A stretch of DNA of 64,000 nucleotides from Obrimoposthia wandeli. Lineage: Eukaryota. The stretch spans positions 1 to 64,000 of the forward strand of contig CDROCS010000294.1 in assembly GCA_977020255.1 (NCBI GenBank), given 5' to 3'. Positions within the stretch are counted from its first letter, which is position 1. Each line of letters begins with the position of its first letter. Position numbers and translations under genes: made by a program. The notes beneath the pieces were generated by a model. The model was given only the letters and a program-made list of their open reading frames with translations. It did no database searches and was not told where the DNA came from. Shown here piece after piece: positions 1 through 33,865 of this stretch.

Positions 1-830
1 AAAGATATGCAGCTACACACGCTTATTTTAATAATAAAATTGATTTCTATTATCATAAAGGATTGATGCAAATGGAACAGTTATATCGGATGATGATTGA
101 AAGAGATTGCCAGTTAAACAAAGAGATCGTGAGAACAAAGTTAGCATTAGCTATTACGAATCCAGACATGGCGGTAACCATTATTACCCTTGGATGAAGG
201 AGTGATTTGCTAAAACCATGGAGAAGTATTTGTATACTTACAGAATTAATAGTAGAGGTACAGTTGAGAAAAACAAATCGATGTACAGGTGAATTGGCAG
301 TAACGTATAATTTAAAAGATCTTTTGTTGAACCAATCACGAAATGTTACTTCAAAGACACCCCAACTAAAGAAATCAGCTGCTCTAATATAATGGCACCT
401 GAATATCAGATGACGAATAATCTATGGATAACGTTACCTGATCGGGAAGCCAACGAAAACCCCAGCGACTATTGATAAGAATGACGAATCTTAAGGTAAA
501 TGAAATTCCAAGCGGTGGAAAATATGGAGAACGCAAGTTGTACAATGAAAAAAGATTTAAAAGCGGCGTGGAACGAAATAATGTTTCCAGTAAGAAGAGC
601 CAGAGTACTTTGCGGAGATGGTACATCGAGCATTACCGCCAGGAGCGAGATATGCGAATTTCGATATGTTATTATCGCCAAGTCATTTCAGGAAGCAGCA
701 TGAACACTTAGAAAGATGTGGGGGAAATTCCTTGTCTTAGGACAACTATTTTCGGGTATCATAGGTATTTATGTTATAATTAAATTTGTGCAGGTAATTC
801 TTAGGTGTTGTCTACGTATAGTTTATACAG
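1..830 (+). pseudogene. C-terminal part of chuvirus-like envelope glycoprotein, frameshifted
   Basis: Manual translation across frames gives RSFVEPITKCYFKDTPTKEISCSNIMAPEYQMTNNLWITLP, KDLKAAWNEIMFPVRRARVL and KMWGKFLVLGQLFSGIIGIY. These match element B's FVEPITR...KEINCSNIMAPHY...IWITLP, EDIDKLRKEILFPQIRSRIL and KIWGKFLIFGQAFSGLVGIY. Confidence 0.88.
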
Positions 831-1259
831 GATAACCGGAATCACCTGGCAACTTATAATTGGATGTTTTTCCATTTTAGCAAAATATCTAATGCACCAT
901 CACGAGAACGAGTTGCGAGCCCTCAAAAGAAGGAACAACACCAAACGAGAACCATGATGAGAGAACCAAGAAACTATCGAGACGACAACGACGACGATAA
1001 TGATAGTCCAGAAGATATGCAAAAGATACCAGGAAAACCAAAGATTCCGTTACCAGACAAGGAAAAGTGGCGTTAAACCTATACCCAGCAGAAGGAATTG
1101 AAGGAAGAGAAGGAAAAATTCAAGAGAGGCATCTTAATGATAAGATGGCTAAAGTGAGAAACGCTACAGTGAAATTCCACAAGCAGAGGAAAAAGACAAA
1201 AGATAATTCCAGAAGAATTCTGAAGTCTAGGATATCAAACGAGAATCCCAATGCTCCTA

Positions 1260-1545
1260 CAAGTAGCAGTAACATTGAACGGAAGAGAGAATATCTTGCC
1301 GAAGTTGATACCGGATCTGCAGTATCATAGTACTGAGTAAAGAAATATCTTGTCATCAAAAGAATTAAGAGAGAAGTATGTCCTAGAAAACAGACATTTG
1401 TTAACGTGAACGGTACAGATGTAGTGTCGGAAGGAACGCTGAAATGTTCATTGAATATCGATGGAAGAGTATTACAGTTAAATGCTAGAATATTCACAGA
1501 TTGCGGTAGTCCAGTCATGCCATTGGGATGGACGTAATACGAATG
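1260..1545 (+). pseudogene. Retropepsin-like aspartic protease domain no. 1, frameshifted
   Basis: EYLAEVDTGSAVS (DTG at 1307-1315), followed in another frame by FVNVNGTDVVSEGTLKCSLNIDGRVLQLNARIFTDCGSPVMPLGW (flap and C-terminal strands). Confidence 0.75.
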
Positions 1546-1844
1546 TTTGAAGGAATAATTATACTACCAAACAACAAGAGTTATAAGAATGATGACAGTT
1601 CAGTGAGAGAGAGATAAAAATGTTGAGAGGACCTATAGTCGAAAAGGAAAAATGCACTACGTTCCGTATGGGAAGTTCGTACCCAGACAAAAACAGGAAG
1701 CGCTAGCAAAGTCGATACTTCACTACAAAATGTAAATTTCGGACCACAAGATACGACGAGGAGAAAAATAACATATGTAAATCTGTCAGAAAGGGATCCC
1801 ATGAGATTCGAGAGAGAAGAAAGAGGGCAGAAATATATTAGAAC

Positions 1845-2035
1845 AGTACTATTCAAAAGGAATGGCACGTAAATGGCAAGATCAGGTTTAGAAATGCTAA
1901 ACGCACGACAAGTAGTTATGGTCAGGAGATAGTAGTACGATGCGTATGGTGTAGAGTAAAGTTTAGAGAATGGGAACAGAATGAAAACCCAATGAGACGT
2001 CATAAAGAGATGCACCAAATTGTCCATTTCTTTTG
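1845..2035 (+). pseudogene. BIR (baculovirus IAP repeat) domain, frameshifted
   Basis: MARSGL... then VVRCVWCRVKFREWEQNENPMRRHKE/APNCPFL: exact C-x2-C-x16-H-x6-C spacing after one frameshift. Confidence 0.8.
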
Positions 2036-2224
2036 AAACTGAAAACGTCAAACGTACCAGAAATCAAACGGGAAAAGCACCCGATTTCGATTACAGTGAT
2101 GGGATTCCAAAGGAGAATCAGCTCTAATAACAGGTATTAGAGTAATAACGAATAGTCGAATTGAAGATATATTCGAAGTTATGCGAGAAGTGAACGAATG
2201 TGACGAACAGTATCAGTAATGCTT

Positions 2225-2395
2225 TCGAAGATCCAAGACTTAAAAATTGGCAAAAAGGGACTTTTTATAAAAAGGATAGTAAAGACGTAATTAAATGCCA
2301 CAAGTGTAAAAAGAACGAATTATCGACAGATACACTCTGGAGCTACCTAAGAAAATTTTGTACACATCATGAATTTTTGCGAATTTTGTACTTCT
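2225..2395 (+). pseudogene. Second, degenerate BIR-like domain
   Basis: RLKNWQKGTFYKKDSKDVIKCHKC resembles the BIR motif GFYY-x-G-x2-D-x-V-x-C-x2-C. The His/Cys half cannot be recovered cleanly. Confidence 0.45.
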
Positions 2396-2684
2396 AAAAA
2401 ACAAAATAAAGCAAAAAGAACAGAAAACCGAATGTATAATCGAATACCAAATCACACGAAAAGAGATTTTGGCTCAACAAGACACACCGGTAGTGTCATT
2501 CGTGAGAGGGTTATATATCCAAAAGAAGCAGAAAGAATCAGAGAGAATTGGTAGAATTAAAAATAAAAACTACGCTTGCGAAACGGATACGGATCGATTT
2601 TTGAATACTGCGAGATAAAGATGACAGTACAATTGAAACAAAGAAAAAGAGTACATAAATGAACTAGAATACGTACTAGAAGAT

Positions 2685-2815
2685 CCGGAATGCGCAGTTT
2701 GCATGGTTAACAAAATAGAAGTTGCCTTTCTACCATGCGGACATGTAGAACATGTCGGAGATGTGCGAATGAAATGGTATCATGTCCAATTTGTCGAAGA
2801 ATAATAGATCGACAA
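2685..2815 (+). pseudogene. IAP-type C3HC4 RING finger, one frameshift
   Basis: ECAVCMVNKIEVAFLPCGHV + RTCRRCANEMVSCPICRRII, typical of IAP C-terminal RINGs. Confidence 0.85.
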
Positions 2816-2919
2816 GTGAGAAACATTAGATTTCACTATCCAAATATAGGAAGTGGACTGACAGAGTGTAATAATTCGATAAATACAATATACCATATGG
2901 GAAACATAAATGGGGCACA

Positions 2920-5900
2920 GCGACCAGCAGCTATCATTAGAGTAAATAATTTAAGAGTAAAAGCCTTAATCGATACAGGTGCTGTAGCTTCAATAGTAAG
3001 TGAATACTGTTTGACAGAGGAACAGAAACGAACAATGGCAGAACCAGATGAATTTTGGTATCGGTCAATGGAGACCCTGTAAAAGTGACGGGAATATTAC
3101 CATGTACATTTATAATTGGCCGTACTACGATTACCTTACCAGTTAGAATCATGAAGAATGTCCTGAACCTACAATTTTAGGAATGGATGTATTATCACAA
3201 CTCAAAGGGATAAGTATTGATTTACAAGATCCAAGATTGAAGGATAGCACATCAAACAGACAAATAAACCAAATTGATGTAATTATAGAATCCCTATAAA
3301 AATCGGTATTAAAGATCACAATTTCTCATTCAAGGTCACACATTATCAGAAGATAAAGGACCAGTTGTGTTCGAACCATCACGAGATTTCATAGAGAAAT
3401 ACGAATTACCAGTTGTGAGTACAGTATGCCTGATCGAAAACCATAAAATACCAGTTAGACTGATGAATACAACCAACAATGACATTCTATTATACAGAGG
3501 AATGAGGTTGGGAAAGATAGCACAAATGGAGAATCCCACAGTGTGTGCTATGAAACTCGATAAAGACACGAATGATTACGAAGAAATAGTAATCCAATCA
3601 GAAAGACTGACAACTAGAGAAAAACAATTACTTGACCTAATACATAAATTTCCGAAAGTAATTGCAAAAAATCCATATGACATAGGAGAAACACCTGTCA
3701 TAAAACATACAATACCACTGACAGAAGACAAAGTAGTCAGAAGAAGACCATATCGAGTACCATTACAATTACAAGATGAAGTAAAAAGTCAGATCGAAGA
3801 TATGTCTAAAACAGGAGTAATTAGACCGAGTGTTCGGCAGTGTCAGCAGCTGTGGTGTGGGTAAAAAAGAAGCAGCGGAAAATGGGGTTCTGTATAGATG
3901 TCAGAGAACTGAACAAGATCACAAGAAAGATGTGTATCCACTACCTAGAATCGAAGAGATGCTCGATAAATTGGGTAATTCAGATTATTTTACAACATTA
4001 GATTTGCAGAGTGGATACTGGCAAATCGAGATAGAGAAAGAGGATAAACACAAAACAGCCTTTTCCTGCGGAGATGGATTATACGAATGCGAAAAGATGC
4101 CATTCGGACTGACAGGAGCTCCAGCAACATTTCAGCGTTGCATGAATTTTGTACTCGCATCGTGTGCAAACACGATGGTTTATATCGATGACATAATAAT
4201 ATTTTCGAAAACGTTCGAAGAACATTTAAAAATCTTGAAGTTGTATTTAAAAGACTGGAAAATGCTAAATTAAAAGTTAAACCTACAAAATGCGTATGGG
4301 CTAAAGAGCGAGTAACATTTTTAGGACATATAGTATCGAAAGGGCATTCGACCTGATCCGGCAAAAGATCGAGAAGTAAAAGCGCATTTAGCGCCAAAGA
4401 CTGTTAAGGAGATACAGAGTTTTTAGGTCTGGCGAATTATTATAGACGATTTGTTGAACATTTTTCAGATATAGCAACACCATTGAGAAAGTTGACGAGA
4501 AAAAGATGAGAAGTTCATATGGGGAGAAGAAGCCCAACAAGCGTTCGAGCATTTAAAGAAAGATTGATAAAAGCACCGATATTAGCGTTTCCAGATATAA
4601 ACCGACAATTCATACTCATGACAGATGCAAGTAACTATGCTGTAGGAGCAGTATTGGGACAAGAGGATGACGAAGGAAGAGAACACGTCATTGCGTATGC
4701 GAGTAGAGGATTAAACAGAGCCGAAAGAGGATACTCTGTTATCGAAAAGGAATGTCTAGCCATAGTGTATTCATGTAGAGCAAGTACAGACACTATTTGC
4801 TAGGACAAAAAGTATTCACTGTATACAGATCACAAACCACTACAGTTCTTATATAAACATAGAGATGAGATGAGTAGATTAAACAGATGGTTTCTAAAAT
4901 TGGCCGAATTCGATCTAGAAATCCGTTATAGAACCGGAAAGTCGAACGGCAACGCAGATTGTTTGTCGAGATTGACAAATGTAGACGAAAGAAACATAAT
5001 TCCAGAAGAAGATGAAACCAATGACCAAAAGGAGAAGCAAATCTACTGACGATTTTGCTAAAGACGAGGTAAAAATAGACAAAGAGATCATCAAAGAACA
5101 GAAAGAAGATGAAAGAACTGAGTCTAATCAAAGAATTGTTGGTGAAAGGAGATCTAAACGATGAAATGACGAAGAAATACTCGATAAAAGAAGGAATCTT
5201 GTATATTGTCAATAATGTCGGAAAGATAGTAGTAGTAATTCCGAAGTCATTGAAAACAGCAGTGATGATCCAGTATCACGACGGAACACTAGGAGGACAT
5301 CTGTCAGGGCGAAAGACAATAGCCAGAATCAAAGAAAGTACCATTGGGATGGTATGGAAGACGACATAAAACAATGAATTGTAAACAATGTAAAGTGTGT
5401 TTAACCAGAAAAGACACCGGAACTCGTACTAAAGTTCCGTTGAAACCAATACCAGTTCCCTTGGCACCAATGGAATTCACAGCGATGGATATATTGGGAC
5501 CATTGAGAGAATCAAGTAAAGGAAACAAGTATGTCATAGTATTTACGGATTACATGACGAGATGGGTAGAAGCATATCCCATGCAGAACCAGAAAGCTGA
5601 AACAATAGCGCAAATCTTGGTGGAAGAGATAATATTTCGATACAGGTGCCTAGAAAGTTGTTAACGGATCAAAGGAAAAGAACTTCACTGGAGAAGTCAT
5701 AAAAGCAGTATCGAAGATATTCGGAATTATGAAGTTACAAACTTCACCATATCACCACAGACAGATGGTCTGGTAGAAAGGTTTAATAAAACTTTATGTA
5801 TGATGGTACAATCCTATTGCTCAGACAAGCAAGAGAGGATTGGGATAAATATTTACCTTCATGTTTATATGCTTACAGGAATTCAGTTCGAGGCGACAGG

Positions 5901-6205
5901 TCACACACCATTCTATCTGATGTATCTCAGACAGAACAATATGCCGATGGATCTGGAGTGGACCGAGCCAACATCTCAGTACCTAGAAACTGAACAATAC
6001 ATTGTCGTCATGAAGGAAAGATTACAAGATGCTTGGACCAAAGCCGGATTGAAGTTGAAATTCAATCAAAGAAGGTTACAAGGAACAATACGACAAAAAG
6101 CAAAACCACATGAATTTAGAGTCGGAGATCAAGTGATGATATTTTATCAGTCATCGAACCAGGTCTATCGTTTAAACTTCATAGACCATACAAAGGACCA
6201 TACAA
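2920..6205 (+). pseudogene. pol: Ty3/gypsy pol (protease no. 2, RT, RNase H, integrase), many frameshifts
   Basis: VKALIDTGAVAS; YPLPRIEEMLDKL, TLDLQSGYWQIE, MPFGLTGAPATFQR, YIDDII; LMTDASNYAVGAVL, YSVIEKECLAIV; GGHLSGRKT...CKQCKVC; MDILGPL, FTDYMTRWVEAYP; GPY motif near 6195. Confidence 0.95.
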
Positions 6206-6206
6206 G

Positions 6207-7634
6207 GTGATCCAGACAACTTCAACAAATTTGAAAGTAATCAACGAAGAGAATCGGAACAAGGAACCGATGATTGTACATGCAAATCGATGCAAATTAG
6301 TACCAAATAAAGATAATGCGTCACGATATGAGTTAAGATCACAGAAATCGAAATCGAATACCAATACCATTAAACTTACACGAATGGTAAGTGATCGGAA
6401 CTACATAAACATGATGACGAGTGGTAGCAAGGAAAAACCAGCGAGAATTGGTATGCTCAGAATGAAGTACCAAGAGGAAAAGGAAGTAATCCGACACATC
6501 GCACCACAAGAGATATTAGAAGAAGACGAAGAGATAATAGTCGTTTTCGAAAAAACACAACCAACAGATGTAGCTAAAGAAGTCATTGTGAAAGATGCAC
6601 TGACAAACGAATTTCTGTGCGAACTTAGAGTGTCATATTACGACGGAAATACATTAGTCGCATCACTTTATCAAAATTCCAATGTGTTTACGACTGAGAA
6701 AGTGATAATCGAAATCACATTGACACCAAACATAGTTGCATGGCAGAACTATGACAGTACTGAAGCAGGACTAGCCAGTCAGGAAGAGAAGGAACCGGCC
6801 GGTGGTCACATACTGCATGGTACACCAACAGGACTCAAACAAGAATACCACGATGTAATAATGGTATTACGTAATTCACATGGGAAAAGAGATATCATGA
6901 GAGTCCATTTAATCGACGCTGACACTGAAAAGATAATTTGTCAGATGGACACTAAATACTTTGATGGAAAGACAATTGTATGTTGTATACCAGAATCTCA
7001 CCGGTTAGAGACAGATCAAACGGAAGTATCTGTAAGGTTGAGCGTAATAGAAGGATTCCATTCGCCAACCCATCCGGAAGTGACTAACAATAAAATCATC
7101 AAAGCAACGGCAGAGTTACGCATTGACAGCGGATACCGGAAGTGGGAAGCTAAAAATAAAAAGCCACAAAGAATCAATATGATCCGAGAACAAGTGACCA
7201 ACTCAATCCAGCCAAAATATCATGCTGAAATAGTATCATCCGCGCCAAGTGTAATCACATCGATAAACGACGAAATTATAATTTTACTAAAAAATCGATG
7301 GCCGTCATCAACTGAGATACGAGTAAACTTAATTAATTATGCGAAAACACCGATATCTAAGCTGAATGTTACCTATTTTGATGGATTGTCCATCATGGGT
7401 AAATTGGAAACAATTGTCATGTGCTACGGAGCACAGTTCCAAGTTGAGATACTTAAAGATAGTGTAATACCGTATCCGATTCACAAATACGAAGGGGAAA
7501 TCAATCCAATTATTCTAACACCTTCATTAATTTCAGTCAGACAGACATACCGGAATACCCTTCGAGCGAGTCTAGTGAAGACAGCGAACCGGAAAGTAAC
7601 GATACAGAATCAACAGAATCCGAAGATAACATAA
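6207..7634 (+). CDS. Integrase C-terminus fused to three ~80-aa repeats (TIG/IPT-like Ig fold, inferred)
   Basis: HANRCK...RYELRS integrase tail, then three repeats with conserved I-x4-P, [DE][EV]I[IM][VI][VLF] and Y[YF]DG at near-constant spacing (about 6486-6722, 6807-7049, 7227-7457). An open acidic frame from about 7540 links to the next ORF by one frameshift. Confidence 0.7.
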   Translation: MIQTTSTNLKVINEENRNKEPMIVHANRCKLVPNKDNASRYELRSQKSKSNTNTIKLTRMVSDRNYINMMTSGSKEKPARIGMLRMKYQEEKEVIRHIAPQEILEEDEEIIVVFEKTQPTDVAKEVIVKDALTNEFLCELRVSYYDGNTLVASLYQNSNVFTTEKVIIEITLTPNIVAWQNYDSTEAGLASQEEKEPAGGHILHGTPTGLKQEYHDVIMVLRNSHGKRDIMRVHLIDADTEKIICQMDTKYFDGKTIVCCIPESHRLETDQTEVSVRLSVIEGFHSPTHPEVTNNKIIKATAELRIDSGYRKWEAKNKKPQRINMIREQVTNSIQPKYHAEIVSSAPSVITSINDEIIILLKNRWPSSTEIRVNLINYAKTPISKLNVTYFDGLSIMGKLETIVMCYGAQFQVEILKDSVIPYPIHKYEGEINPIILTPSLISVRQTYRNTLRASLVKTANRKVTIQNQQNPKIT

Positions 7635-7654
7635 TAGAGCGATTCGGAAGAACC

Positions 7655-9637
7655 ATGGAGGTTGAATTCGCTAAAGAAAGCAGAAAAAGACAAAACATAG
7701 AATTCGTGAAACAGAATATACAAGAAAGACGAATTAAATCTGCAGAAGAGACCGAGTCGGAAGAAGACTCAACAAAGGAACAGACATCAGAGACAAAGAT
7801 GAATACCTCTCCAGCAATACGAATGCTGAGAGGAAAGAAACTGGCAAAACTAACCAACATCGACGAACAGATAGAGAAGAGATTAGAAAGATTAAAACTT
7901 GAAGAGTCAGAATTAATGCCACAAATGAGTGAGATCATTCCAGGTAAGTTGTACCTCGGAAATGTGGAGGATGCAACAGATGAAAAGAAACTGTTGGAAC
8001 AAGGGATAACATACGTGATCAACGTTACAATGAATCACAAATCACAATATCAGACGATCAGAGCTATGACATTAAGAGTAAAAGACTCAATGGACGCTAA
8101 TCTTCTCGAATGGTTTGTAGAAACAAACGAAATACTTCACAGAGAACTCCGGAACAAAGGAAAAGTGTTGGTACATTGTCAGAAAGGAATTTCTCGATCA
8201 GCAACCCTAGTATTAGCATATCTAATAAAGACTAGACGAATGCAGGTACTAGAAGCGTTAAAATACCTACAGGAGAGAAGAAGTATTGCAAACCCAAATC
8301 TTAATTTTTTGGGGCAGTTGGCAAATTACCAACTTCTGTTGCAAGAACAAAGACGGATGGACGACATTCCTGAGGACCCAAAGGAAAAGAATTTCCTTCA
8401 AGCATTATCACTGACTGGGTTATTTTTAGCCGGAGTCGACAAAATTACACAAATAATGCCAAAAGTATTTTTATGTCATCCAGGAGATATAGATACTGCT
8501 GGATTAAAGTTCCATAGTATCAACCGAGTAATCAACATTGTTGAAATCGGAAACGAGATAATTAGTCTGTGTCAAAATACTGAAAATGACACCACTCGAT
8601 ACATACATGCTTCCAATCGAGAGATAAACGATGCACAACAACATCTGACGAAATTGACTCAAACCATCCAAGCTGAAGTCACAGAAGGAAACGGCGTTCT
8701 GATATATCAGAAAAAAGGTACAATGTTAGCGCCTACCATAGGTGTATCCTTGTTGGTAGAGTACCATGGTCATACGCCAGAAGAAGCGATGGTCTACATC
8801 AAACAGAATAGACCAAATACGGAATTCAAACCGTTACTCGTTCGAGAAATAGAGAAATACACCGAAAAGAGGAAGCAACAACGAGAAACAAATGAAGCTA
8901 CAACAACAGTGCCCAGCTTTCAATACCAAAGATTGCTAGCGATAGGCTTGTTAAGTTGTTTAATGCCGATAACGGGAGCACAAGAAATAGACTCCAACCC
9001 CGGAAATAGTTCCTGGTTCAACGAAATCCAAAATTACACCATACAGTACCATACACCGGCACTGATGATGCTATTAGTATTGTTAGGACTAATTGATGTG
9101 TGGATCATCCGAAAATGTATTCGATCTATGAGAACCGACAGTAAAAGATTTCAGTTTGTAAAGATGAAAAGACCAAATGGACCAACAAACAAAGTGCTTG
9201 TGTATCTAGACGAAAGGATCGAAGACAACATAGTAAATGAAGCGATATTTTACCCACAAAACAGAATACTGAATCAATTCCGAATAGATTACGAAGCTGA
9301 CCGACAGCACACACTTGACCAAATATCAACAACATTCGCCGGATGCAAGCGGAGAAAACGAGTTGTAAAGGAAATACAAAAAGATGCTGATACAAAAGGA
9401 CCAACGTATATATTCGATGGCGATGTCATCAAAACACGTGAGTATGGAAGTAAGAGAGTGATAATTGAAACAATGGAAGGACATAAAACATGCTTGTCCG
9501 CCAAAAATGGATTCGGAAAGTTGACGATACAAGGTAAACCGGTACAGTTGATTATCGGAAGAGATGGAATCGAGGAGATGTCAAAACAACGACAGACACG
9601 ATCAGAAACAGATATCTCTCAAACGATTGATAATTAA
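7655..9637 (+). CDS. Polyprotein segment: active dual-specificity phosphatase + pseudophosphatase + signal-like and TM segments
   Basis: DSP1 about 7919-8338 with VLVHCQKGISRSATLVLAYL and NPNLNFLGQL. DSP2 about 8441-8860 keeps the fold motifs, but its P-loop is VLIYQKKGTMLA. Hydrophobic stretches at about 8930-8983 and 9056-9109. Confidence 0.9.
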   Translation: MEVEFAKESRKRQNIEFVKQNIQERRIKSAEETESEEDSTKEQTSETKMNTSPAIRMLRGKKLAKLTNIDEQIEKRLERLKLEESELMPQMSEIIPGKLYLGNVEDATDEKKLLEQGITYVINVTMNHKSQYQTIRAMTLRVKDSMDANLLEWFVETNEILHRELRNKGKVLVHCQKGISRSATLVLAYLIKTRRMQVLEALKYLQERRSIANPNLNFLGQLANYQLLLQEQRRMDDIPEDPKEKNFLQALSLTGLFLAGVDKITQIMPKVFLCHPGDIDTAGLKFHSINRVINIVEIGNEIISLCQNTENDTTRYIHASNREINDAQQHLTKLTQTIQAEVTEGNGVLIYQKKGTMLAPTIGVSLLVEYHGHTPEEAMVYIKQNRPNTEFKPLLVREIEKYTEKRKQQRETNEATTTVPSFQYQRLLAIGLLSCLMPITGAQEIDSNPGNSSWFNEIQNYTIQYHTPALMMLLVLLGLIDVWIIRKCIRSMRTDSKRFQFVKMKRPNGPTNKVLVYLDERIEDNIVNEAIFYPQNRILNQFRIDYEADRQHTLDQISTTFAGCKRRKRVVKEIQKDADTKGPTYIFDGDVIKTREYGSKRVIIETMEGHKTCLSAKNGFGKLTIQGKPVQLIIGRDGIEEMSKQRQTRSETDISQTIDN

Positions 9638-11079
9638 AACCCTTTGCAAAAGGTCAGTCAAGGCCCTGTGCACCGTTGCACAAGGATTGATCTATGGAGT
9701 AGTAATTGGATTGGTACTGCAAGCCATGCCAACCAGTAAAGCCGAATTGATGACACTATCCGAATATAATTTACATTTGAGAAATCTAGACAACACCCTA
9801 GAAATAATCAAGACATCCCACAGTAGAGCCGTGATGATCATGTGTGTAAAAGGATGTCCAGGACAGAATGTGTATAGTCCCAGCGACCGAAATGATAACA
9901 CTTAATGGACATTATGGAGTTAGCGTTGTCACATGTGAAGACTACATATTTGGACAAACTAAAATAGTGCTTCTCAGTGACACGTCCAACCAAAGTGCAC
10001 ACAAATTTAAAATATTAACCATCAAGAGTAAAGGAATACCAGCAGTACGTTATGGTATTCTAGAATTGGTTAATCCAATACTCGCACTGATCATTGGATT
10101 TATAATATTAATATTACTCATCTTGTTTTGTTGTTCAAAGATAGAGTCGAGATCAAAAAAGAAACGCCATGATCTCGCAAGACGAACAGGTCAAATGAAC
10201 TTACAAAAATTCAACACAATAATACCAAGACCACCATTCCTAGATGAACCAGCACCAGAGTACCAGCCAACGATATACGAACACATCGAGGAAAGACCGT
10301 ACTATATGAGTAATTTGACTTGTTTCATTGAAGTTCCTGAGTTTAGGAATCGAACGATCATAGGAATCATGCTGATCGTACAAATCACCACTACCAAGGC
10401 TAGTTATGAGATCATGATCAGTAAATGGAGACAAGACGTAATACGGGCAATATACATAGAAATTCCCCTACTAAAAACAAATCACGTAGTAGACATTCAT
10501 CTACAGACGTCAGCAACTGACAATATCGATCAGAAATTGTATGTCATCCGACAGGTCAGAATAAAAATCGACCAACATACACCCGTTTACAAATTAATAT
10601 TATTGCATCATGAAAGAGTGTTATACCTACGGATAACAATATCAAAGAGGAAGCGGATTATCCAAAGTATCCGAACAAAGTCATTAATATTACCTAGAGA
10701 TGAGCGCATCTGGAAAATTGTCGACAGGATTATGATCACAGGTAGACGACGTAAAGCCGTATGGAATTCCGTTAGGATATTTTTCAGATTGCTAGAAACT
10801 GACAGCGTGACAGTAATGTGTCCCAACCCAGATGGCGTAATCAGATTCGAAATCCAAAGCCAAATGTTAGTACCACATTTTAACACAGAATGTCTGTGTA
10901 ATCGAATTGCAAATAATTCTACAGAGACCGCAACCGTATTCATGATAATAATAGGTGATATATTCTACATAACACTAAGATACCAGAACCGTCGATTTCG
11001 CAGATACGGTATAAGTATCAAACCCAGGAAAATCATTCCCAGAAGACCAATCCTAATAGTCAAAAGAAGGCAAAGGTAA
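9564..11079 (+). CDS. Polyprotein segment(s) with signal-peptide-like and transmembrane segments, product unknown (two frameshifted ORFs)
   Basis: GLIYGVVIGLVLQAMPTSKA; TM PILALIIGFIILILLILFCC followed by a basic stop-transfer stretch; TIIGIMLIVQITTTKA. ORFs 9564-9905 and 9868-11079 overlap. Confidence 0.6.
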
Positions 11080-11662
11080 TCGAAAGTAAACGACATTCCA
11101 AGAAACCGACAGTGATCAAAACAAAGACAGAAGCGAAAGAAAAAGAGTCAATCCCAGAAACCAAAGTACAATTATTAAGAGGACAAGAGTGAGGGAACGA
11201 TCCCTAGATCCCAAACATCATTTCCAATCCAAAATAATAATACCTGTTCCATCAGAAACAAAACACCCAAATCCCCGAATTTTTAGAAAATCGGACATAA
11301 TACATGGAAACCGATCAAAACCCATGGAAATATCATTCGAACCGACAAACGACAAAATGAAGTATGATTATAAAACATCAGACAGCGGAATAACAGCGGT
11401 CAATGCCCTAGTGGAATGGCCGTAGTGTCAACAGCGGTGGTTCTACTTACAATCGTGTGCGTAAAAGGCAGTCAAGTATGCCCAGGAATACGACGAAAAT
11501 GCGAAGGATTGCGATGCTGTGACACACCCATCATGGAGGAAGTGGAATTGCGACCCTTACCTCCACCTCCCATCAAGATATGATGAGTCAGAGGAGGTTG
11601 TAGATAAATCAGTGTGTGAAATATGTAGAAATATCTAGAAGCGATTGTACAAATAGTAGAAG

Positions 11663-11671
11663 TATATAAAA
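11663..11671 (+). promoter_or_regulatory. TATA-like box upstream of RING ORF1
   Basis: TATATAAAA starts 44 bp upstream of the ATG at 11707 in a short AT-rich intergenic gap. Confidence 0.4.
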
Positions 11672-11706
11672 CTCATGTAGAAATTAATCATCATCATGTA
11701 TTTAGA

Positions 11707-12006
11707 ATGGCCGAAGAATGCCCAATATGTTTAGAAGATCTAACCGAACGAAGAACAAGACCCGAAACCTGCAACCATTTACACCACGAGGAATGTTTAT
11801 CGACATGGATCAGAACTTATGGACAGTTCGGACACCCAACATACCCTCGTTGCCCTATATGCAGAAGACAATTCGCAAGATTCGTCATGTTAGAACCCAA
11901 CCAAAGGGATGTATATGTACAGGTGGTATTCTGCTGGAAGAATTTCGGAGAGTGTTGGTGTTATTACTGTTTGTCAGATCGACAAAATCAGACCACTTTT
12001 GTGTAA
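11707..12006 (+). CDS. RING-H2 protein 1 (99 aa) with C-terminal Cys cluster
   Basis: CPIC-x13-CNHLHHEEC-x3-W...CPICR, then CWKNFGECWCYYC. Confidence 0.88.
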   Translation: MAEECPICLEDLTERRTRPETCNHLHHEECLSTWIRTYGQFGHPTYPRCPICRRQFARFVMLEPNQRDVYVQVVFCWKNFGECWCYYCLSDRQNQTTFV

Positions 12007-12066
12007 AGATCACACAAACACCAGTCCTCAATCGAGCCCAAATTCAACATCAACCCTCCCACAGTA

Positions 12067-12369
12067 ATGTCTGGAGAATGTTCCATCTGCTACGAGAGCA
12101 TCGTGGACTTCTACACCAAGCCCAACAACTGCGACCACCTTTTCCACGTCGAATGCCTCGAGACGTGGATCCCCATCAAACAGCAACAACCCCTCGACTT
12201 TCCAACCTGCCCGATGTGCAGAGCGACCTTCTCAGTACACTACGTGTACAACCAAGACAGCCTCCAAGCAGTGGTACCCATCGTACACTGCTGGAAAACC
12301 ATCTGCGATTGCTGGTGCTCGTTCTGCGTGGAGGAGCGAAGCACAGGCCAGCCCAATCCCCAGCAATAA
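12067..12369 (+). CDS. RING-H2 protein 2 (100 aa) with C-terminal Cys cluster
   Basis: CSIC-x13-CDHLFHVEC-x3-W...CPMCR, then CWKTICDCWCSFC. Confidence 0.9.
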   Translation: MSGECSICYESIVDFYTKPNNCDHLFHVECLETWIPIKQQQPLDFPTCPMCRATFSVHYVYNQDSLQAVVPIVHCWKTICDCWCSFCVEERSTGQPNPQQ

Positions 12370-12703
12370 TCGAAGGTAACTTTCTGACTTGAACGTGACA
12401 TCATGAACTACCCTGTGTATCGCATACCGCGATAAATTAGCTACCATAATTGTAATCATAATTATATAATCTTGTGAACTGTAAATTGACCATTACCATT
12501 TTTATGTATGATGTTTAACTGAAATTGTAATTATTATACTGAATTTCTAAAAAATACAATTTTTATGCTTAGTGTGAATGCGTAAACATGCCTAAAATCG
12601 AAACAAAACTCGGTAGGATTAGATAACTAAGAATTCATTTTGAAATAAAATTTAAATTAACGATGAGAACGGTGAACCCCAAATTAAAAGGAGTCATTTT
12701 CTC

Positions 12704-13240
12704 ATGCAGATGTTGTGCTCCGTATGCATGGAGAAGATTTGGGCGGTATCAGCATCCCCTGTCGGCTGCCGTCACAAATTTCACGAGGAGTGCCTCTATT
12801 TGTGGACCAAGGTTCGAACCTCCGGACAAATCACCTGTCCACTGTGCCGGACACCCTTCGCCAAATGGACACTCCAGAGCCGGGGAAGACACAAAGGCAC
12901 CCGATCGCCTGCCAGCTGCATTGGTGGCATCCATTGCCGATGCTACGTGTGTCTCGCACGCCGGCGCGACACACAACTGGGCGTCCGCGAGAGATGGCGG
13001 TCTAGTCGAGACTGCCACTCGTGGTTCCAGGCCAGACGGCACTGGATTGAAAGCCATAACATGAACAGGCAGCACTTCGACCTGTTCATCGACAGCCCGC
13101 ATTTGACCCGGAGCCAGCAACTCCATTTGTACAACGGGGACAGTCCGTCCTTTCCCGACCTTCCCCTGGAACAGGTTCTACGCTACCTGGCCAGTCGGAA
13201 CCAGCCAACAATTACAATTGATTTGACATACGACAATTAA
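12704..13240 (+). CDS. RING-H2 protein 3 (178 aa) with Cys cluster and C-terminal SIM-like motif
   Basis: CSVC-x13-CRHKFHEEC-x3-W...CPLCR, CIGGIHCRCYVC, ends TITIDLTYDN. Confidence 0.88.
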   Translation: MQMLCSVCMEKIWAVSASPVGCRHKFHEECLYLWTKVRTSGQITCPLCRTPFAKWTLQSRGRHKGTRSPASCIGGIHCRCYVCLARRRDTQLGVRERWRSSRDCHSWFQARRHWIESHNMNRQHFDLFIDSPHLTRSQQLHLYNGDSPSFPDLPLEQVLRYLASRNQPTITIDLTYDN

Positions 13241-14011
13241 TCCTTTCCTCCCTTCTTTCCTTCCTGACCTTGGTTATCGTGTAATTTTGTGTGTAAATTT
13301 TTAGTTGTGCATGGTTAATAGTGTATACTTTGAGACTTGCTCCAAATTATATATTATGTTTCCCACTGGAAAACCGAGATTTTGAAAAAATTGTTTTTGG
13401 GCATGTTTGTTGAGGTTGAATGATTGATTTTGTAGGGATGAACCTAAAATCAACAGCCAAAGGCTTATTAAGTAAAATCGATACGTTCCGGGGACGTAAC
13501 TTTTTTGGAACCCCCGAGGTATGTTAAGGTTGAGAATTAAGAAAATTAAATATTTTAGTTGATTAAATACTAAAATAAAAAATCCTTGAAAGCAAGGTCG
13601 AAAATTGAATTAAAATATTAATTTAAGTTTTAGAAGTAAAATTAGTGAAATTTAGGGTAAATTAGGAGGACCACGAAGGTCGTGTATTATGCGAAAATGT
13701 ATAAAAGTTTAAAGTTAATTAACCAAAAGGAACAAAATAAGAATTAATTAGAAGAAAAACGGTTAATTACAACCGTCGCTCAAGGATCCCCAAGGTAAGC
13801 ACATTTTCGTGCAATAAACTAAATTTTGTTTGCAGCTGTCAATTGATTGACATTGCAATATTCTCTCCGGGTTCGCTGAAGAAAGACTCAACGCAGCCGT
13901 CAACTGATTGACGTCCAGTGCCAATATATAAAGGCAGGTTTTCCAGCTAGAATCACAAATACGGAATCGCCAGAAGAAACAAAGACAGGAAGCAACAATC
14001 CCCTCGTCAGA

Positions 14012-14591
14012 CGAACCGTTGATTGAAGAGTCGAACCGTTGATTGAAGAGTCGAACCGTTGATTGAAGAGTCGAACCGTTGATTGAAGAGTCGAACCGTT
14101 GATTGAAGAGTCGAACCGTTGATTTAAGAGTCGAACCGTTGATTGAAGAGTCGAACCGTTGATTTAAGAGTCGAACCGTTGATTGAAGAGTCGAACCGTT
14201 GATTGAAGAGTCGAACCGTTGATTTAAGAGTCGAACCGTTGATTGAAGAGTCGAACCGTTGATTGAAGAGTCGAACCGTTGATTGAAGAGTCGAACCGTT
14301 GATTGAAGAGTCGAACCGTTGATTGAAGAGTCGAACCGTTGATTGAAGAGTCGAACCGTTGATTGAAGAGTCGAACCGTTGATTGAAGAGTCGAACCGTT
14401 GATTGAAGAGTCGAACCGTTGATTGAAGAGTCGAACCGTTGATTGAAGAGTCGAACCGTTGATTGAAGAGTCGAACCGTTGATTGAAGAGTCGAACCGTT
14501 GATTGAAGAGTCGAACCGTTGATTGAAGAGTCGAACCGTTGATTGAAGAGTCGAACCGTTGATTGAAGAGTCGAACCGTTGATTGAAGAGA
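14012..14591. repeat. 20-bp minisatellite (CGAACCGTTGATTGAAGAGT) x29 inside LTR A
   Basis: Exact 20-bp period. Three units carry a G>T change (at 14121, 14161, 14221). Confidence 0.97.
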
Positions 14592-14702
14592 CGAACAGTC
14601 GATTTCGAAGACGATTCCGCCAGGCTCGCAAACACCACATACGGACCCTACACCGGACGTCCCACGAGTTGCTGTAACTGGTAAGAACACAGACTAGGTT
14701 CA

Positions 14703-15140
14703 TTCATTGCCCCTAGTAGGCAATTAGGATATATTCATTACCCCTAGTTGGTAATTCTATATTTTCTTAATCATACACAAATTCATTGCCCCTAGCTGGT
14801 AATTAGGATCACTGTCTCTTTACCACAATCATTGCCCCTAGTTGGTAATTAGGATCGGACCTTTATTCATTGTCCCCAGCGACAATTAGGAAACCTACCA
14901 GACGTTTTTTCCCGTAAGATTCATTGTCCCTAGCTGACAATTAGGTTCATTCATTGCCCCTAGTTGGTAATTCGGATAAATATTCATTGTCCCTAGTAGA
15001 CAATTCGGTAAGACTCATTGTCCACTAGCTGACAATTCGGTTCGTTCATTGTCCGTAGTTGACAATTAGGAGTAAGTTTTTATTGTCATCTTGACAATTA
15101 GGTTTTTAGGAGATCCCTTGTCTACAGTAGACAATTTGGG
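14703..15140 (+). repeat. Array of 12 short inverted-repeat (hairpin) units with variable linkers inside LTR A
   Basis: Consensus TTCATTGYCCCTAGYWGRYAATTMGG. 6-bp stems with 5-8 nt loops; linkers about 4-29 nt. Confidence 0.9.
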
Positions 15141-18100
15141 TCAAACATACACAGAGAGAGTAAGGAACAAAGAAACATTTAGCTAGAGATAAGAAGTAGG
15201 AGCGAAGAAAATTAAGAGAGTTGCGTTATAGATTAACCAACCTGAGTAAGAAGACTAAACCTAAGAAACTTAATCACCTGAACGTAAAATCGATACGTGG
15301 TTCATCCCCACTTCTTGTAGAGACTCACGGAAGTCCTTTAGGAATTTTATCATACTTTTTAGAAATACGTACATAAACGTATTGTGGTATTAGTTACGTG
15401 AATTTTGAATAAACAATTTCCTACATTAGAACAAGTTGTTTTTACACCCTTCAGACTAAGAGACATCAAATCAAACACCTTCAGATAGTACAAGAGATTA
15501 GGCAACCATAACACTAAGTAGGCCACGACCAACTTTAAGACCTGCTTCTAATCGAACTCACGTTGGGGCCCTCCGCACACTAAGAGGCTCTATACCAAGT
15601 TTCGTATAGAAACCCCAACAATTTCGCTATAAATAGTACGAGGATTTTCTCGACATTTAAATATTTTATTAAGAATTTAAATATAAAGAATAAATTAGGT
15701 TTCATCGATTCCTTCCGAAAAAAACACCACTTTTTGTTAACAAGTGTAATAGGCAAAAATCTAAAATAAAATTTATAGATATTTTTAAAATTAACTAACC
15801 TTTTTTTTAATAAGATCTTTATTGTTCTTTTTCAAAAATATATTTTGTCAAGAGCTAAATATAAGTACTATAAATAGCTATATTTTAAAGAATGCAAATA
15901 TAAGCAGAAATATACATAATATGTATAATATAGATACAAAAATTATTTAATTTTTACAACCAAATAATTTATTTAAATAACGTAAATACCATTTAAAAAA
16001 TCTCTGTACAAAAATGAATCTAGAAAAGTTCCCTTGTCTACTGTAGTCGACTAAACTCATTTGATTTGTTTAGATTTATCACCAACCAGGTATTCATTAT
16101 GAGCCAAATTAAAGTTTACAATATCGTCGTAATTTGATTGGCTAATAGTTATTTTAAAAAATCTGGGTTTCTCTTCCCTAATGCATGACGTCATGCAATC
16201 AAGAGGCAACCTGTGAGTGTGTGTAGTAATAATCAATAATAAAGAATGCTGCCGAATCAAGTGTAGCAGACAGTGAATTTTTTTAGTCTTCTGGTGCCTG
16301 AAGGGACTCATTTGAACAAGCTCTAGCATCTTTTAAAACAAGCTAAATATTTGAAGATCTGTTGACTGCATGGGAATATAACATAGTGCAATGGACTACT
16401 CGTGTGGTTTCGCGCCTGGGTTTGGTGGTTCTTTGAGAAGGGGTGGTAATATTCGAAAATCGTTATCAGTTTCTTCAAAATACATTGGAGGAGCAGATTA
16501 TGGTAAGAATTTATTTGGGTGTTTTGAGGAAAATATTTAACTTTAAAACTATTTTGTAATTAAAAGTTTATTATAATCCCATTTTGAATCTTTGGATTTT
16601 ATGTCTCGTACATCTCGTACATCGCTACATAACATAAAAGTAGCTGGGTGTTTAATTGTTTAAAATATTTACTATTTTATTTACTTATCTATCTGTGATT
16701 CGTAAATTTTGGCAGAGCTCTTATTTCTCCATAGAAATCAATTTTCGGCTTCGAATTTTAAGTTTTATTGTTTTCAGCTTATTTGCTCTGCATCAAAACT
16801 TTAAATAAACTATTTTTATAACTTTAAATTTAGGGATTAAGTGAGAGAATGTCAACCAGAAATTCGAATACTAAAACTATGAACCATATATACATCTAAC
16901 ATTTATCATTTCAGTAATTGTCGTAATTCTGTGTAGAGCAGCCGTAGACATTATCAAATTTTTACGTTTAAATTAAATTTATTCTCATTGTGGATTTATA
17001 ACAGTATCCATCTATAACTTTTGAGCTGCGTAAAATTCCATTGCGTGTCACCAGTTTGAGACAAATTTTTTTTCTTCTGCATCATACATTTTATAGTTTT
17101 TGTGCAAAATTACTGTAATTTTCTTCTATGTGATGTTCAATTTATCAATATATTTTATTTTCTCATCGGATTTATCAACTACAGAATGTTAACCAACTAG
17201 ATACAACAGAAGTTATCAGAGTGGAAATCGCAAATCTTCTTGATAATTACCAAATATTCTCAAAGTTAATTGTCAGCACCAATGTTAAAATATTAGTGCC
17301 CTAAAACGTTTTTATTGTAAATAAGTAATTTTGAAAATTTTAAAATATCCCTTAAAATATTTTTTGGGAAACAGGAAATTTTACGTTATATTTGCCTTGG
17401 TAAAGCTTAGTAAAATTTTCAAGTAGAAAATTGTTATGAGATCAAAAACAATCATTTCAGTAAACTATAATCTGTATTTTTATTTAATAAATTACAAAAT
17501 AAGTGCTGTTGAAAATCAATATTGCATATTCTGATTTGTAGACAAGCTCCAGCACAAATTTTGCTACTTTAAAAGCGCAATAAGGAAATTTTCCATTCTT
17601 CCGCCTATTGCATCCCTCACTTTCATTGTTAAAATATGAATTGTGTGTGTGGTAACTACGGGGGATGGTGTTAGACTTCCAAACAGGTTAATGGGATCCG
17701 AGAGAGTGGGATATTTTTAATGCAATATCCTTTTATAATGTTATTTTATGGAAATGAATAGTCTATAAACAAAAAAACAGGAAATCTATTTTATATCCTC
17801 TATATCTTGACATCACAAAACTCCACTTTGATATGAAAGCTAAACTTAGAGCACCACTGAAGATCAAATCACTAAAATATATTAATAGCAATTTTTTTCA
17901 TTGTGACCCATGTGGTTGATGATTACTAGTTAAAGCTTGAATATTTGGTTGTATTGAGATTAGTAATTTGAGCGTAATTATTACGTTTATTGATTGGAAA
18001 TAAATTATATTCTTTGCTTGAATATAAATTATATACAAATATCCAGCTTCAACCAAATAATAACTGAAAAATACTCAAAGCTGGAGATAAATGTTCTTTT

Positions 18101-32232: not shown

Positions 32233-33865
32233 TGTTGGGGTTTATATTTGAAACTCTTAAATATATCCTCGGATAGAGTGCCCCAACGTGAGTTCTATAG
32301 AAATATGGCTTGGAGTTGTTTGTGGCTTATTTAGATTGTGCTTACCTGTCTCAATGTCTAATCTGAAGGTTTGTTTTTGCTTGTTGTTGTGGAGTTGTGT
32401 GAAGAGCTGTGTATACGGTACTGGAAAAATTCCCTTAGTGTGGTGTAATGTATGAAGTTGTTGGCATTTTCTTTAAGTTCAAATACTTGTTCAACACAAC
32501 GCTGTTTAATTGTAGGAAAGCTTTATTATTGAAAACACACTATTTTACGTTTTTAAAAACGACAACAACTAATCCTAACTTCTCTTCACTAAACCTCACA
32601 CAAATGGGGATGTCTTACGTATCGATTTTATAATTTCTTTAGTCGAAGCGTTTACTTCTTCTTATGATTTTATCGTATAAAATGTGGGCGATTTTAAATT
32701 TAACTTATTTTATCTTCGTCGTAAAAATATGGACGATTTTAATTCAAAGCTTTTATTTCATTTTAAGATTCTATCGTACAAAATATGGCGATTTTAGTGG
32801 AAAACTTTATACTGATATTTTATAAACGTATTTCAAGATGAATACTTTCACTTTAATAATATTCAATAAGGCAGTTCAATAGGGCAATTTCACTTTATCT
32901 ATCTTTAAATAATATAGTCAATTACTATTTAATATGGGCAATTCAATATCTTCAAATAATATAGACAATTACTATGTAATATGGCAATTCAATATCTTCA
33001 AATAATATTCTATAAATAATATAGTTTAATTTCTTTTCTCACCTTTCTCAAATCCGAGAGATAGTTGCGTCCGTCTGTGAGTCTGTAGTGTATAGTCTTA
33101 GAACAATGTAGGTAAGGGAAGTCGGCAAATTAGTTTCGTACCTTTATTTTTCATCGTCCACTGCGAGGTTGTTCAGAACAAATATGGCATTTGAATTTAC
33201 TTTTCTTCGTTTTTTCAATTTTAGTCTTCTTAATATCCTGTTAGTTTTGTCCTCCGAAATTGATTTGAATTCGATTCTTTATTTTCTGTCGCGCTTGGAT
33301 TTTATCGACGAGTTCTGTATATCTGTTTCTGGATATCAACTGTGACATTTTTATAAATATCCTTTTTCGACTTTGATATAAATTTTTTTCGCCTGGCAAA
33401 CGCTGTCTTCCTTTTTTATACTCCTGAATCTGGGAAACAATAATAATTTTGCACTTAGTTTATGTGTTCTTACCTACGTGTCTGGAGATCAGCTGGATAT
33501 TCACAGCGTCTTCTTGCTGCTTCGGATACAGTGGCGCTTAATGGGCTTCCTTGACTGGCGCTAATGTGTCGAGATTTATATTTGGCCTGGCGTAATTGTA
33601 TCGCTAATGGATTCGATTTCTCGTAATAAGTTTCTTTAATTCGATTTTGCCTTCTATATTTTTTGCACCTTTTGGGCCCTAAACTCTCCTTATATATAGC
33701 ACACTAAACACTTGACCTCTTCAAGGTCCTAAAATACTTTTAATAAAATTATATTAGTTTTAATTTTTAATTTATTTTTTAACCTTGCGTACTTTGCTTC
33801 AAGGATTCATTTCACTATATAAAAATAATTATTTTTTGAAAATTAATAAAATCCTAATTCTAACA
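32233..33865 (-). mobile_element. Solo LTR related to LTR A, TSD ATAG
   Basis: TG...CA termini; ATAG at 32229-32232 and 33866-33869; ends homologous to LTR A (e.g. CCCCAACGTGAGTTC, ATCCTTGAAGCAA). Confidence 0.85.

Follow-up and report, generated by a model that had tools for sequence, protein, structure and literature searches.

Giant gypsy retrotransposons of flatworms with ubiquitin- and apoptosis-related cargo, spliced accessory open reading frames (ORFs) and viral SUMO-targeted ubiquitin ligases are all known already. Accessory ORFs have been noted for the Burro/GYPSM1 group of planarians, for whose ubiquitin-related cargo the only proposal to date is that it may "meddle" with its host (PMC6431247), and the accessible part of PMC8532177 reports that Burro copies in Schmidtea are derepressed upon loss of nuclear PIWI. 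According to the accessible portions of the respective sources, a gag-env-pol order has also been described in flatworm elements (PMC13524379), spliced messages are the usual route of expression for the third ORFs of LTR elements (PMC5408684), and the combination of a RING domain with a SUMO-interaction motif (SIM) defines the activity of ICP0 and RNF4 (PMC3174244). Transposon-encoded anti-silencing proteins are rare in animals. Here, we compare these systems with a locus found in a 64-kb stretch of DNA (referred to below as the window), which starts at the first base of its contig in an assembly of 1.35 Gb.

Results

A giant gypsy element with a putative ligase domain in its polyprotein

Bases 1-15620 of the window make up the 3' two-thirds of an LTR element of about 23 kb (22.8-23.2 kb in three copies, as calculated from LTR positions). 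LTRs, a primer-binding site (PBS), the PR-RT-RH-IN domain order and a target-site duplication, that is, all the Ty3/gypsy traits, are present, and by its layout the element is a giant gypsy retrotransposon of the Burro type. Since LTR pairs are 97.5-99.6% identical and a 4-bp target duplication was found in three of five copies, the family has been recently active. All 40 scored DNA matches to the element were 97-100% identical (at least 40 matches), and all 150 scored matches to its ORF2 were 94-100% identical, giving at least 150 copies in the genome. The frame of the element in the window is set by two features:

1..11583, plus strand: 3' two-thirds of the polyprotein (end of the fusion protein, protease-like domain, BIR, C3HC4 RING, PR, RT, RH, IN, two DUSP domains and a hydrophobic C-terminal part)
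13522..15620, plus strand: 3' LTR (TGTT...AACA), placed from copies away from contig ends, with a middle of lineage-specific tandem repeats

The polyprotein of the window copy contains many frameshifts and has lost its 5' part at the contig start; natural open frames in two other copies (L061 and L108) reach the same stop at 11583, and RH, IN and DUSP share a single frame in copy L056. Read one by one, natural open frames place a CCHC knuckle first, then a Monjiviricetes-type fusion protein (PF24664) and a protease-like domain, followed by BIR, C3HC4 RING, protease, RT, RNase H, integrase and two DUSP domains; the fusion glycoprotein is placed between gag and pol (CCHC knuckle, PF24664, protease). 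The BIR and the C3HC4 RING score 40.5 and 45.5 bits, respectively. This IAP-like pair is located between two aspartic-protease-like domains (window about 1500-3100; L053:1525-4397) and, judged from the sequence, is a putative ligase domain of the IAP type (BIR-RING) inside the polyprotein, the fourth of the element together with those described below and one that had previously been overlooked. The two tandem DUSP domains lie 3' of the integrase (window 7655-9637) and in the integrase frame in L056; the first contains a C-x5-R motif (HCQKGISRS) and the second, as read from its sequence, apparently lacks the catalytic Cys.

The LTR ends are kept among lineages, and the middle is swapped for different tandem-repeat arrays (window 13850-15240; loci L021-L108), the LTR length being 1.3-3.0 kb across loci and the window LTR containing about 30 copies of a 20-bp unit. 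The PBS, similar to the 3' end of elongator tRNA-Met, lies 8 nt behind the 5' LTR (L057:3966-3992) and is followed by a long tandem-repeat leader. A stretch near the LTR start (13571-13629), whose AATAAA at LTR position 52 is conserved, recurs at 71-75% identity in 33738-33788 and 52213-52284, probably LTRs of related families. With regard to the host, a multicopy COX1 scored best under table 9, the flatworm mitochondrial code (437.7 versus 424 and 421 bits), which most likely points to a flatworm, not to a particular family. Also in the assembly, and probably contamination, are several COX1 genes of bacterial type and another animal mitochondrial COX1, which scores best under table 5. The assembly likewise contains many ubiquitin-like arrays, as well as ubiquitin-like domains within long repeat-type frames (L123, L124).

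Three paralogous RING-H2 genes outside the polyprotein

Three ORFs running from ATG to stop follow the polyprotein stop and precede the 3' LTR:

11707..12006, plus strand: ORF1, 99 aa, RING-H2 domain (residues 5-53) and Cys4 cluster, intact in 63 of 79 loci
12067..12369, plus strand: ORF2, 100 aa, RING-H2 domain and Cys4 cluster, pooled dN/dS 0.18
12710..13240, plus strand: ORF3, 176 aa, RING-H2 domain, beta hairpin, Cys4 cluster, helical tail and terminal SIM-like motif

The earlier note on this DNA had described three paralogous, stand-alone RING-H2 ORFs outside the polyprotein, and our analysis agrees: all three carry the pattern C-x2-C-x13-C-x-H-x2-H-x2-C-x3-W...C-P-x-C-R with the eight RING-H2 (C3H2C3) ligands C-x2-C...C-x-H-x2-H-x2-C...C-x2-C, and their Pfam zf-RING_2 scores (40.6, 36.2 and 32.6 bits for ORF1, ORF2 and ORF3) exceed the cut-off of 27.3. 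ORF2 and ORF3 share 37% and 34% identity with ORF1, and at the sequence level the three are old duplicates. The start of ORF3 is probably 12710 rather than 12704, as annotated before, the latter ATG being found in 31 of 46 copies versus 46 of 46 for the CAG-ATG at 12710.

Diverged lineages were reached with a codon pattern that avoids the young subfamily (496 matches; control, 0). The copy survey comprises 79 loci (90 minus 11 that repeat a place), in which ORF1, ORF2 and ORF3 are intact 63, 51 and 46 times, broken copies having been dropped from the dN/dS sets; the three ORFs are a fixed part of the element family, present across subfamilies. Copies were filtered by their start, their end and a few RING residues, the cluster cysteines not being among them. 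The zinc ligands, the helix Trp and the Arg that follows the RING are all kept across copies, conservation of the RING being somewhat inflated because 39 of the 79 loci were chosen by a RING motif; the Arg is found in 63 of 63 ORF1 copies, the sole set without a filter on that residue. In active ligases, these ligands, the Trp and the Arg serve E2 activation. The earlier note had named this Arg as the E2-activating linchpin.

A structural model of ORF3 (49 sequences; mean pLDDT 77.9, pTM 0.47, pLDDT 82-92 over residues 1-60) consists of a RING fold, a beta hairpin (residues 55-67), the cluster at pLDDT 63-66 and four helices. Its best fold match is to RING domains (Z 6.9, rmsd 2.1, 66 aligned), and the RING fold of ORF3 is supported by the model. 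A three-sequence model of ORF1 was too poor (pLDDT 52.6) and was set aside. A Hakai-like dimer was the top Foldseek row, yet with E 0.19 and rmsd 14, and is at most a tentative arrangement. On the strength of the conserved residues, the three proteins are likely RING-H2 ubiquitin ligases. As a separate observation, the window ORF2 differs from most copies over four residues via local indels (12178-12190), a spot that is frameshifted in nine of the first 20 loci and represents either a hotspot or an assembly error.

A selected cysteine cluster behind the RING domain

Each ORF continues behind its RING with four closely spaced cysteines:

11932..11970, plus strand: ORF1 cluster, C-x6-C-x-C-x2-C
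12289..12327, plus strand: ORF2 cluster, C-x6-C-x-C-x2-C
12917..12952, plus strand: ORF3 cluster, C-x5-C-x-C-x2-C, with a His conserved ahead of the second Cys

A six-frame scan of the window for C-x5/6-C-x-C-x2-C gave three matches, all within the three ORFs, while the chance rate of the pattern is about 1e-5 to 2e-4 per 45 residues. The clusters show dN/dS values of 0.16, 0.15 and 0.16 in ORF1, ORF2 and ORF3 (pooled pairs), their cysteines are kept in 44-46 of 46 ORF3 copies, and all four use both TGT and TGC; the possibility, raised earlier, of an insertion absent from other copies is thereby removed. The cluster matches no family among those searched in Pfam and the Atlas (PHD, CXC, C2HC, ZZ and others). 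At E<=10, the post-RING part gave no Pfam match for ORF1 and ORF2 and a weak one for ORF3 (YqgG, 16.4 bits, cut-off 27), its best Atlas match was 0.77, and fold searches with whole models returned matches confined to the RING (residues 1-63), which filled the listings. The cluster bears some resemblance to PHD and CXC zinc fingers; an origin as a PHD or CXC remnant found no profile match in Pfam.

Four selected cysteines directly behind a RING suggest a third zinc site, and the cluster most likely binds zinc as a structural site beside the RING. Since RNF125, TRAF proteins and Hakai demonstrate that adjacent zinc sites can be structural, the "substrate module" proposed in the earlier note is just one candidate reading, and a RING-stabilising site of the RNF125/TRAF type fits as well as substrate binding.

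A SUMO-interaction-type motif at the end of ORF3

ORF3 ends in a short motif that had not been noticed before:

13217..13228, plus strand: I-D-L-T, SUMO-interaction-type motif at the C-terminus of ORF3

[VI]DLT with a nearby acidic residue, which lies two to three positions behind it in most copies, ends ORF3 in 34 of 46 copies and in 25 of 37 distinct proteins, both in the window's clade and in a group that is about 57% identical. The remaining 12 distinct proteins, which lack the motif, form two whole well-supported clades plus three single copies; in these clades the ORFs are intact and selected, and one of the clades is carried by young copies. No match to [VI]DLT was found in 17,620 polyprotein residues, and ORF1 and ORF2 have no tail of this type. 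The core is shared with the PIAS2 SIM peptide VDVIDLTIESS (accessible part of PMC9071424), and the end of ORF3 is a putative PIAS-type SIM. A RING and a SIM-type motif are therefore present in one protein, and by analogy ORF3 is predicted to be a SUMO-targeted ubiquitin ligase with an ICP0/RNF4-like layout, with one motif versus the several SIMs that RNF4 uses according to the accessible text of PMC3174244. As for possible targets, piRNA-guided chromatin silencing in Drosophila requires SUMO (bioRxiv 10.1101/533091, accessible part), and the accessible part of the planarian PIWI paper (PMC8532177) contains no mention of SUMO. A SUMO role in flatworm silencing would thus be an extrapolation from flies. 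The host genome contains an exon that, from its likeness, we take to be SUMO-like.

The window contains a second element with an envelope-type gene:

about 45323-34000 (noted also 45323-35130), minus strand: second gypsy element with gag, Monjiviricetes-type fusion protein and PR-RT-RH-IN, at least 118 copies

Its 3' end carries a 102-aa ORF and a DEDD/RNase T exonuclease, with YAG just before both ATGs. Among 25 copies, 21 have an exonuclease frame that starts at CAG-ATG and stays open over 375 aa, and 22 have IDLTSSDSEDNI at its end; the terminal VIDLTSSDSEDNI is a SIM-like motif with an acidic-serine tail. Because these 25 copies are 97-100% identical to each other, they count as one observation. 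The window copy itself has an early break in the frame that begins at the acceptor-adjacent ATG near 36257. The sequences of this family support both the reading of the ORF3 end as SIM-like and that of the YAG sites as splice acceptors (see below).

It is conceivable, although we consider it doubtful, that the ligases, likewise made by splicing, are aimed at apoptosis, stress or innate-immune signalling alongside the BIR-RING and DUSP domains, with IDLT being a localisation tag or incidental. The BIR, the IAP-type RING and the two DUSP domains of the polyprotein fit such targets, Burro cargo has been linked to apoptosis and ubiquitination (PMC6431247), and IDLT is lost in two intact clades and missing from ORF1 and ORF2; the BIR-RING and DUSP cargo indicates apoptosis or signalling targets as easily as silencing. 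This reading is, however, harder to reconcile with two observations: (i) [VI]DLT is kept exactly while the flanking residues vary and (ii) the same motif ends the unrelated exonuclease of the second family.

Candidate splice sites before the RING genes

The sequences preceding the three ATGs and the LTR contain the following candidate expression signals:

11662..11671, plus strand: TATA-like box GTATATAAAA, shared by 41 of 42 near copies and by 1 of 21 diverged ones
11701..11705, plus strand: TTTAG, putative splice acceptor ending 1 nt ahead of the ORF1 ATG, in 62 of 63 copies
12060..12064, plus strand: pyrimidine-rich run and CAG, putative splice acceptor ending 2 nt ahead of the ORF2 ATG, in 51 of 51 copies
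12705..12709, plus strand: TGCAG, putative splice acceptor directly next to the ORF3 ATG, in 46 of 46 copies
13700..13706, plus strand: LTR TATA box some 175 nt from the LTR start, found in 28 of 31 LTRs; a candidate promoter whose place of action would be the 5' LTR
13795..13802, plus strand: G/GTAAGCAC, candidate splice donor that would close a short leader exon from the LTR, in 20 of 31 LTRs at 250-450 nt

The CAG before ORF3 is 100% conserved in 22 distinct upstream sequences, versus 0.36-0.77 at positions -40 to -9, whereas the DNA upstream of ORF1 and ORF2 is conserved throughout (0.8-1.0 at most positions); the case for an acceptor-like site is therefore strong for ORF3 and weak for ORF1 and ORF2. 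In the LTR, where the TATA and donor tallies were counted by hand, the donor-like site sits about 100-250 nt beyond the TATA box and is missing from 11 of 31 LTRs. Since an acceptor-like TTTGCAG follows it by only about 40 nt (13829-13835), the donor may only open a small intron within the LTR. The LTR also holds a further TATA (13925) and a further donor (14681). Taken together, the kept YAG sites and the conserved LTR TATA and donor-like site suggest that the RING genes are likely made from spliced subgenomic mRNAs in which a short LTR leader is joined to one of the three acceptors. In four sequencing runs (one sample, kind not recorded), whose reads cover the non-coding gaps too, no GT-AG joint to the three ORF starts is among the joints listed (at most 15 at a time), so the runs are uninformative on splicing. 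Read depth in them is lower over ORF3, which fits the divergence of ORF3 between subfamilies.

The main alternative to cis-splicing is an operon-like cluster that flatworm spliced-leader trans-splicing would resolve at the same YAG sites, which we regard as improbable. The host reads as a flatworm, flatworms do trans-splice and, according to the accessible part of PMC12582326, Schistosoma operon gaps have a median of 99 nt; the gaps here are 123 nt (polyprotein to ORF1) and 60 nt (ORF1 to ORF2), and 31 of 46 copies have an AATAAA between ORF2 and ORF3. However, AATAAA occurs in 1 of 63 gaps before ORF1 and 0 of 51 before ORF2, the terminal AUG of flatworm leaders (same source, accessible part) would be out of frame before both ORFs, and the LTR contains a conserved cis donor.

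An internal promoter of its own for each RING gene, as the earlier note had supposed, appears very improbable. The gaps before ORF1 and ORF3 are as AT-rich as stated there (29% and 30% GC), and the TATA-like box before ORF1 does exist; many genes, moreover, lack a TATA box. The box is nevertheless lost in the diverged lineages, in which the acceptor-like YAG is kept instead, it has no counterpart before ORF2, and one is seen in only 1 of 46 copies before ORF3. In addition, the ORF2 gap of just 60 nt contains neither a TATA nor an upstream ATG, and the ORF3 gap holds nine upstream ATGs.

Selection on the cassette and exchange of ORF3 alleles

Young copies are 97-100% identical, so that intact frames alone prove nothing. 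Across copies, purifying selection is indicated by pooled pairwise dN/dS values of 0.42 for ORF1, the weakest case, and of 0.18 and 0.26 for ORF2 and ORF3, the pairs not being independent. Single-pair tests reached p<=1.3e-4 in three of three ORF2 pairs, five of five ORF3 pairs and only one of three ORF1 pairs, and the ORF1 linker has a dN/dS of 1.03. Since selection is purifying and the frames are intact, the cassette is, on these codon data, functional for the element, least clearly for ORF1.

Function could also mean that the small proteins are inactive decoys sequestering host E2 enzymes or RING partners, given that ORF1 and ORF2 barely exceed RING plus cluster (about 100 aa) and leave scant room for a substrate site; retention of every zinc ligand, the helix Trp and the Arg, as in active RING-H2 ligases, makes this hardly credible. 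The idea of a neutral cassette that a young element carries along, for which the near identity of young copies and the partly non-significant ORF1 pairs might speak, can practically be dismissed, as it is contradicted for ORF2 and ORF3 by the single-pair tests and by ORF3 lineages with dS up to 2.3, dN of 0.2-0.36 and intact frames.

ORF3 was also found to be mosaic. Copy L023 has the same ORF1 as the window, but its ORF3 differs by 33.5%, from which it follows that deep ORF3 alleles move between subfamilies. Such swapping, as read from the sequences and missed before, fits a host conflict. The overall ORF3 dN/dS of 0.26 gives no sign of positive selection.

Discussion

We favor, with about equal measures of belief and doubt, the view that the three ORFs are conserved accessory genes, expressed from spliced subgenomic mRNAs, which encode RING-H2 ligases, and that ORF3 targets SUMO-marked host silencing proteins. 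Transcription would start in the 5' LTR, and the short leader would be spliced to one of three acceptors, one per RING ORF. The proteins would recruit E2 through their RING-H2 domains, with zinc bound by the Cys4 cluster, most likely as a structural site. The tail of ORF3 would bind SUMO, and the protein would degrade SUMOylated piRNA/H3K9me3 silencing factors, in the manner of herpesvirus ICP0. The tail-less ORF1 and ORF2 would reach their targets through the region of the cluster or in a pair with another RING. A wider version, which we offer tentatively and think somewhat unlikely as a whole, is that an envelope-bearing animal retrotransposon acts like a complex virus and splices three ligases, including a self-encoded SUMO-targeted one, against piRNA/SUMO silencing; it would comprise a new RING-plus-Cys4 module, arms-race swapping of alleles and a second family aiming its exonuclease at the same SUMO-marked compartment.

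Because the RING genes are short, have intact frames in many copies, evolve under selection and seem to be expressed separately, the idea can be tested directly. Should ORF3 indeed prove to be a SUMO-targeted ligase, retrotransposons would have an equivalent of herpesvirus ICP0, and the protein could serve to probe whether flatworm PIWI silencing uses SUMO. Such a ligase could also help to explain the very high copy numbers of these elements.

Comparison with known systems

Homologues outside this genome were sought in word-limited searches. None was found for ORF1; alignment A1 gave 84 candidates, none at E<=0.01, and did not return ordinary RING proteins either; none of 2547 candidates for alignment A2 among longer proteins and none of 291 pattern matches in metagenome contigs was confirmed. 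Among the full-text literature listed, neither stand-alone RING-H2 genes nor a protein with both RING and SIM were described for an LTR element; such ORFs may already figure in the original Burro paper, its supplements or repeat databases.

By layout, the closest relative is Burro/GYPSM1 of dugesiid planarians (PMC6431247), which shares with our element a flatworm host, a very high copy number and one huge polyprotein with gag, a mononegavirus-like fusion protein between gag and pol, a BIR and ubiquitin-related cargo. The element differs from Burro in its length (about 23 versus >30 kb), in the DUSP pair after the integrase, in showing no MATH, BCL2, ankyrin or SUMO-like Pfam matches in nine frames scanned, and in its three stand-alone 3' RING-H2 genes, which the Burro description in PMC6431247 does not include. 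The rotifer elements Juno and Vesta (DEDDy, GDSL and env ORF3s) resemble it in having accessory genes 3' of pol as separate spliced units (accessible part of PMC5408684, which mentions neither RING nor ubiquitin nor SUMO), and a DEDD exonuclease 3' of pol is found in the second element of the window. They have one ORF3 and no RING, whereas here there are three paralogues, each with an acceptor-like site.

Among proteins, RNF125 (C2HC), TRAF5/6 and the Hakai HYB domain, all among the fold matches, also have a RING closely followed by a short metal-binding motif, and the title of PDB entry 5dka calls the C2HC finger essential for RING activity; the matches span only residues 1-63, and the ligands here follow C-x5/6-C-x-C-x2-C. 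The Atlas clusters that lie closest (0.92-0.94) are RING proteins of giant DNA viruses (Nucleocytoviricota; 83-124 aa). Giant-virus contigs contain a tandem RING-H2 pair with Cys-rich tails beside a capsid-like gene (L185, 1661-2261) and a small RING-H2 gene with a Cys-rich tail (L198, 3001-3270), similar in layout to the ORFs and alignable over the RING only, and none of 87 viral RING frames has the cluster pattern. A giant-virus origin, with a likeness restricted to the RING, is kept as a lead. ICP0 and RNF4 have a RING of the C3HC4 type, versus RING-H2 in ORF3. ORF3, known from its sequence, further differs from them in its 176 aa, in a single SIM-like motif at the very end and in having no sequence link beyond the RING. 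Like ICP0 (HSV-1) and RNF4 (PMC3174244, accessible part), it combines a RING and a SIM-type motif in one chain and, like ICP0, it is encoded by a nuclear parasite facing silencing.
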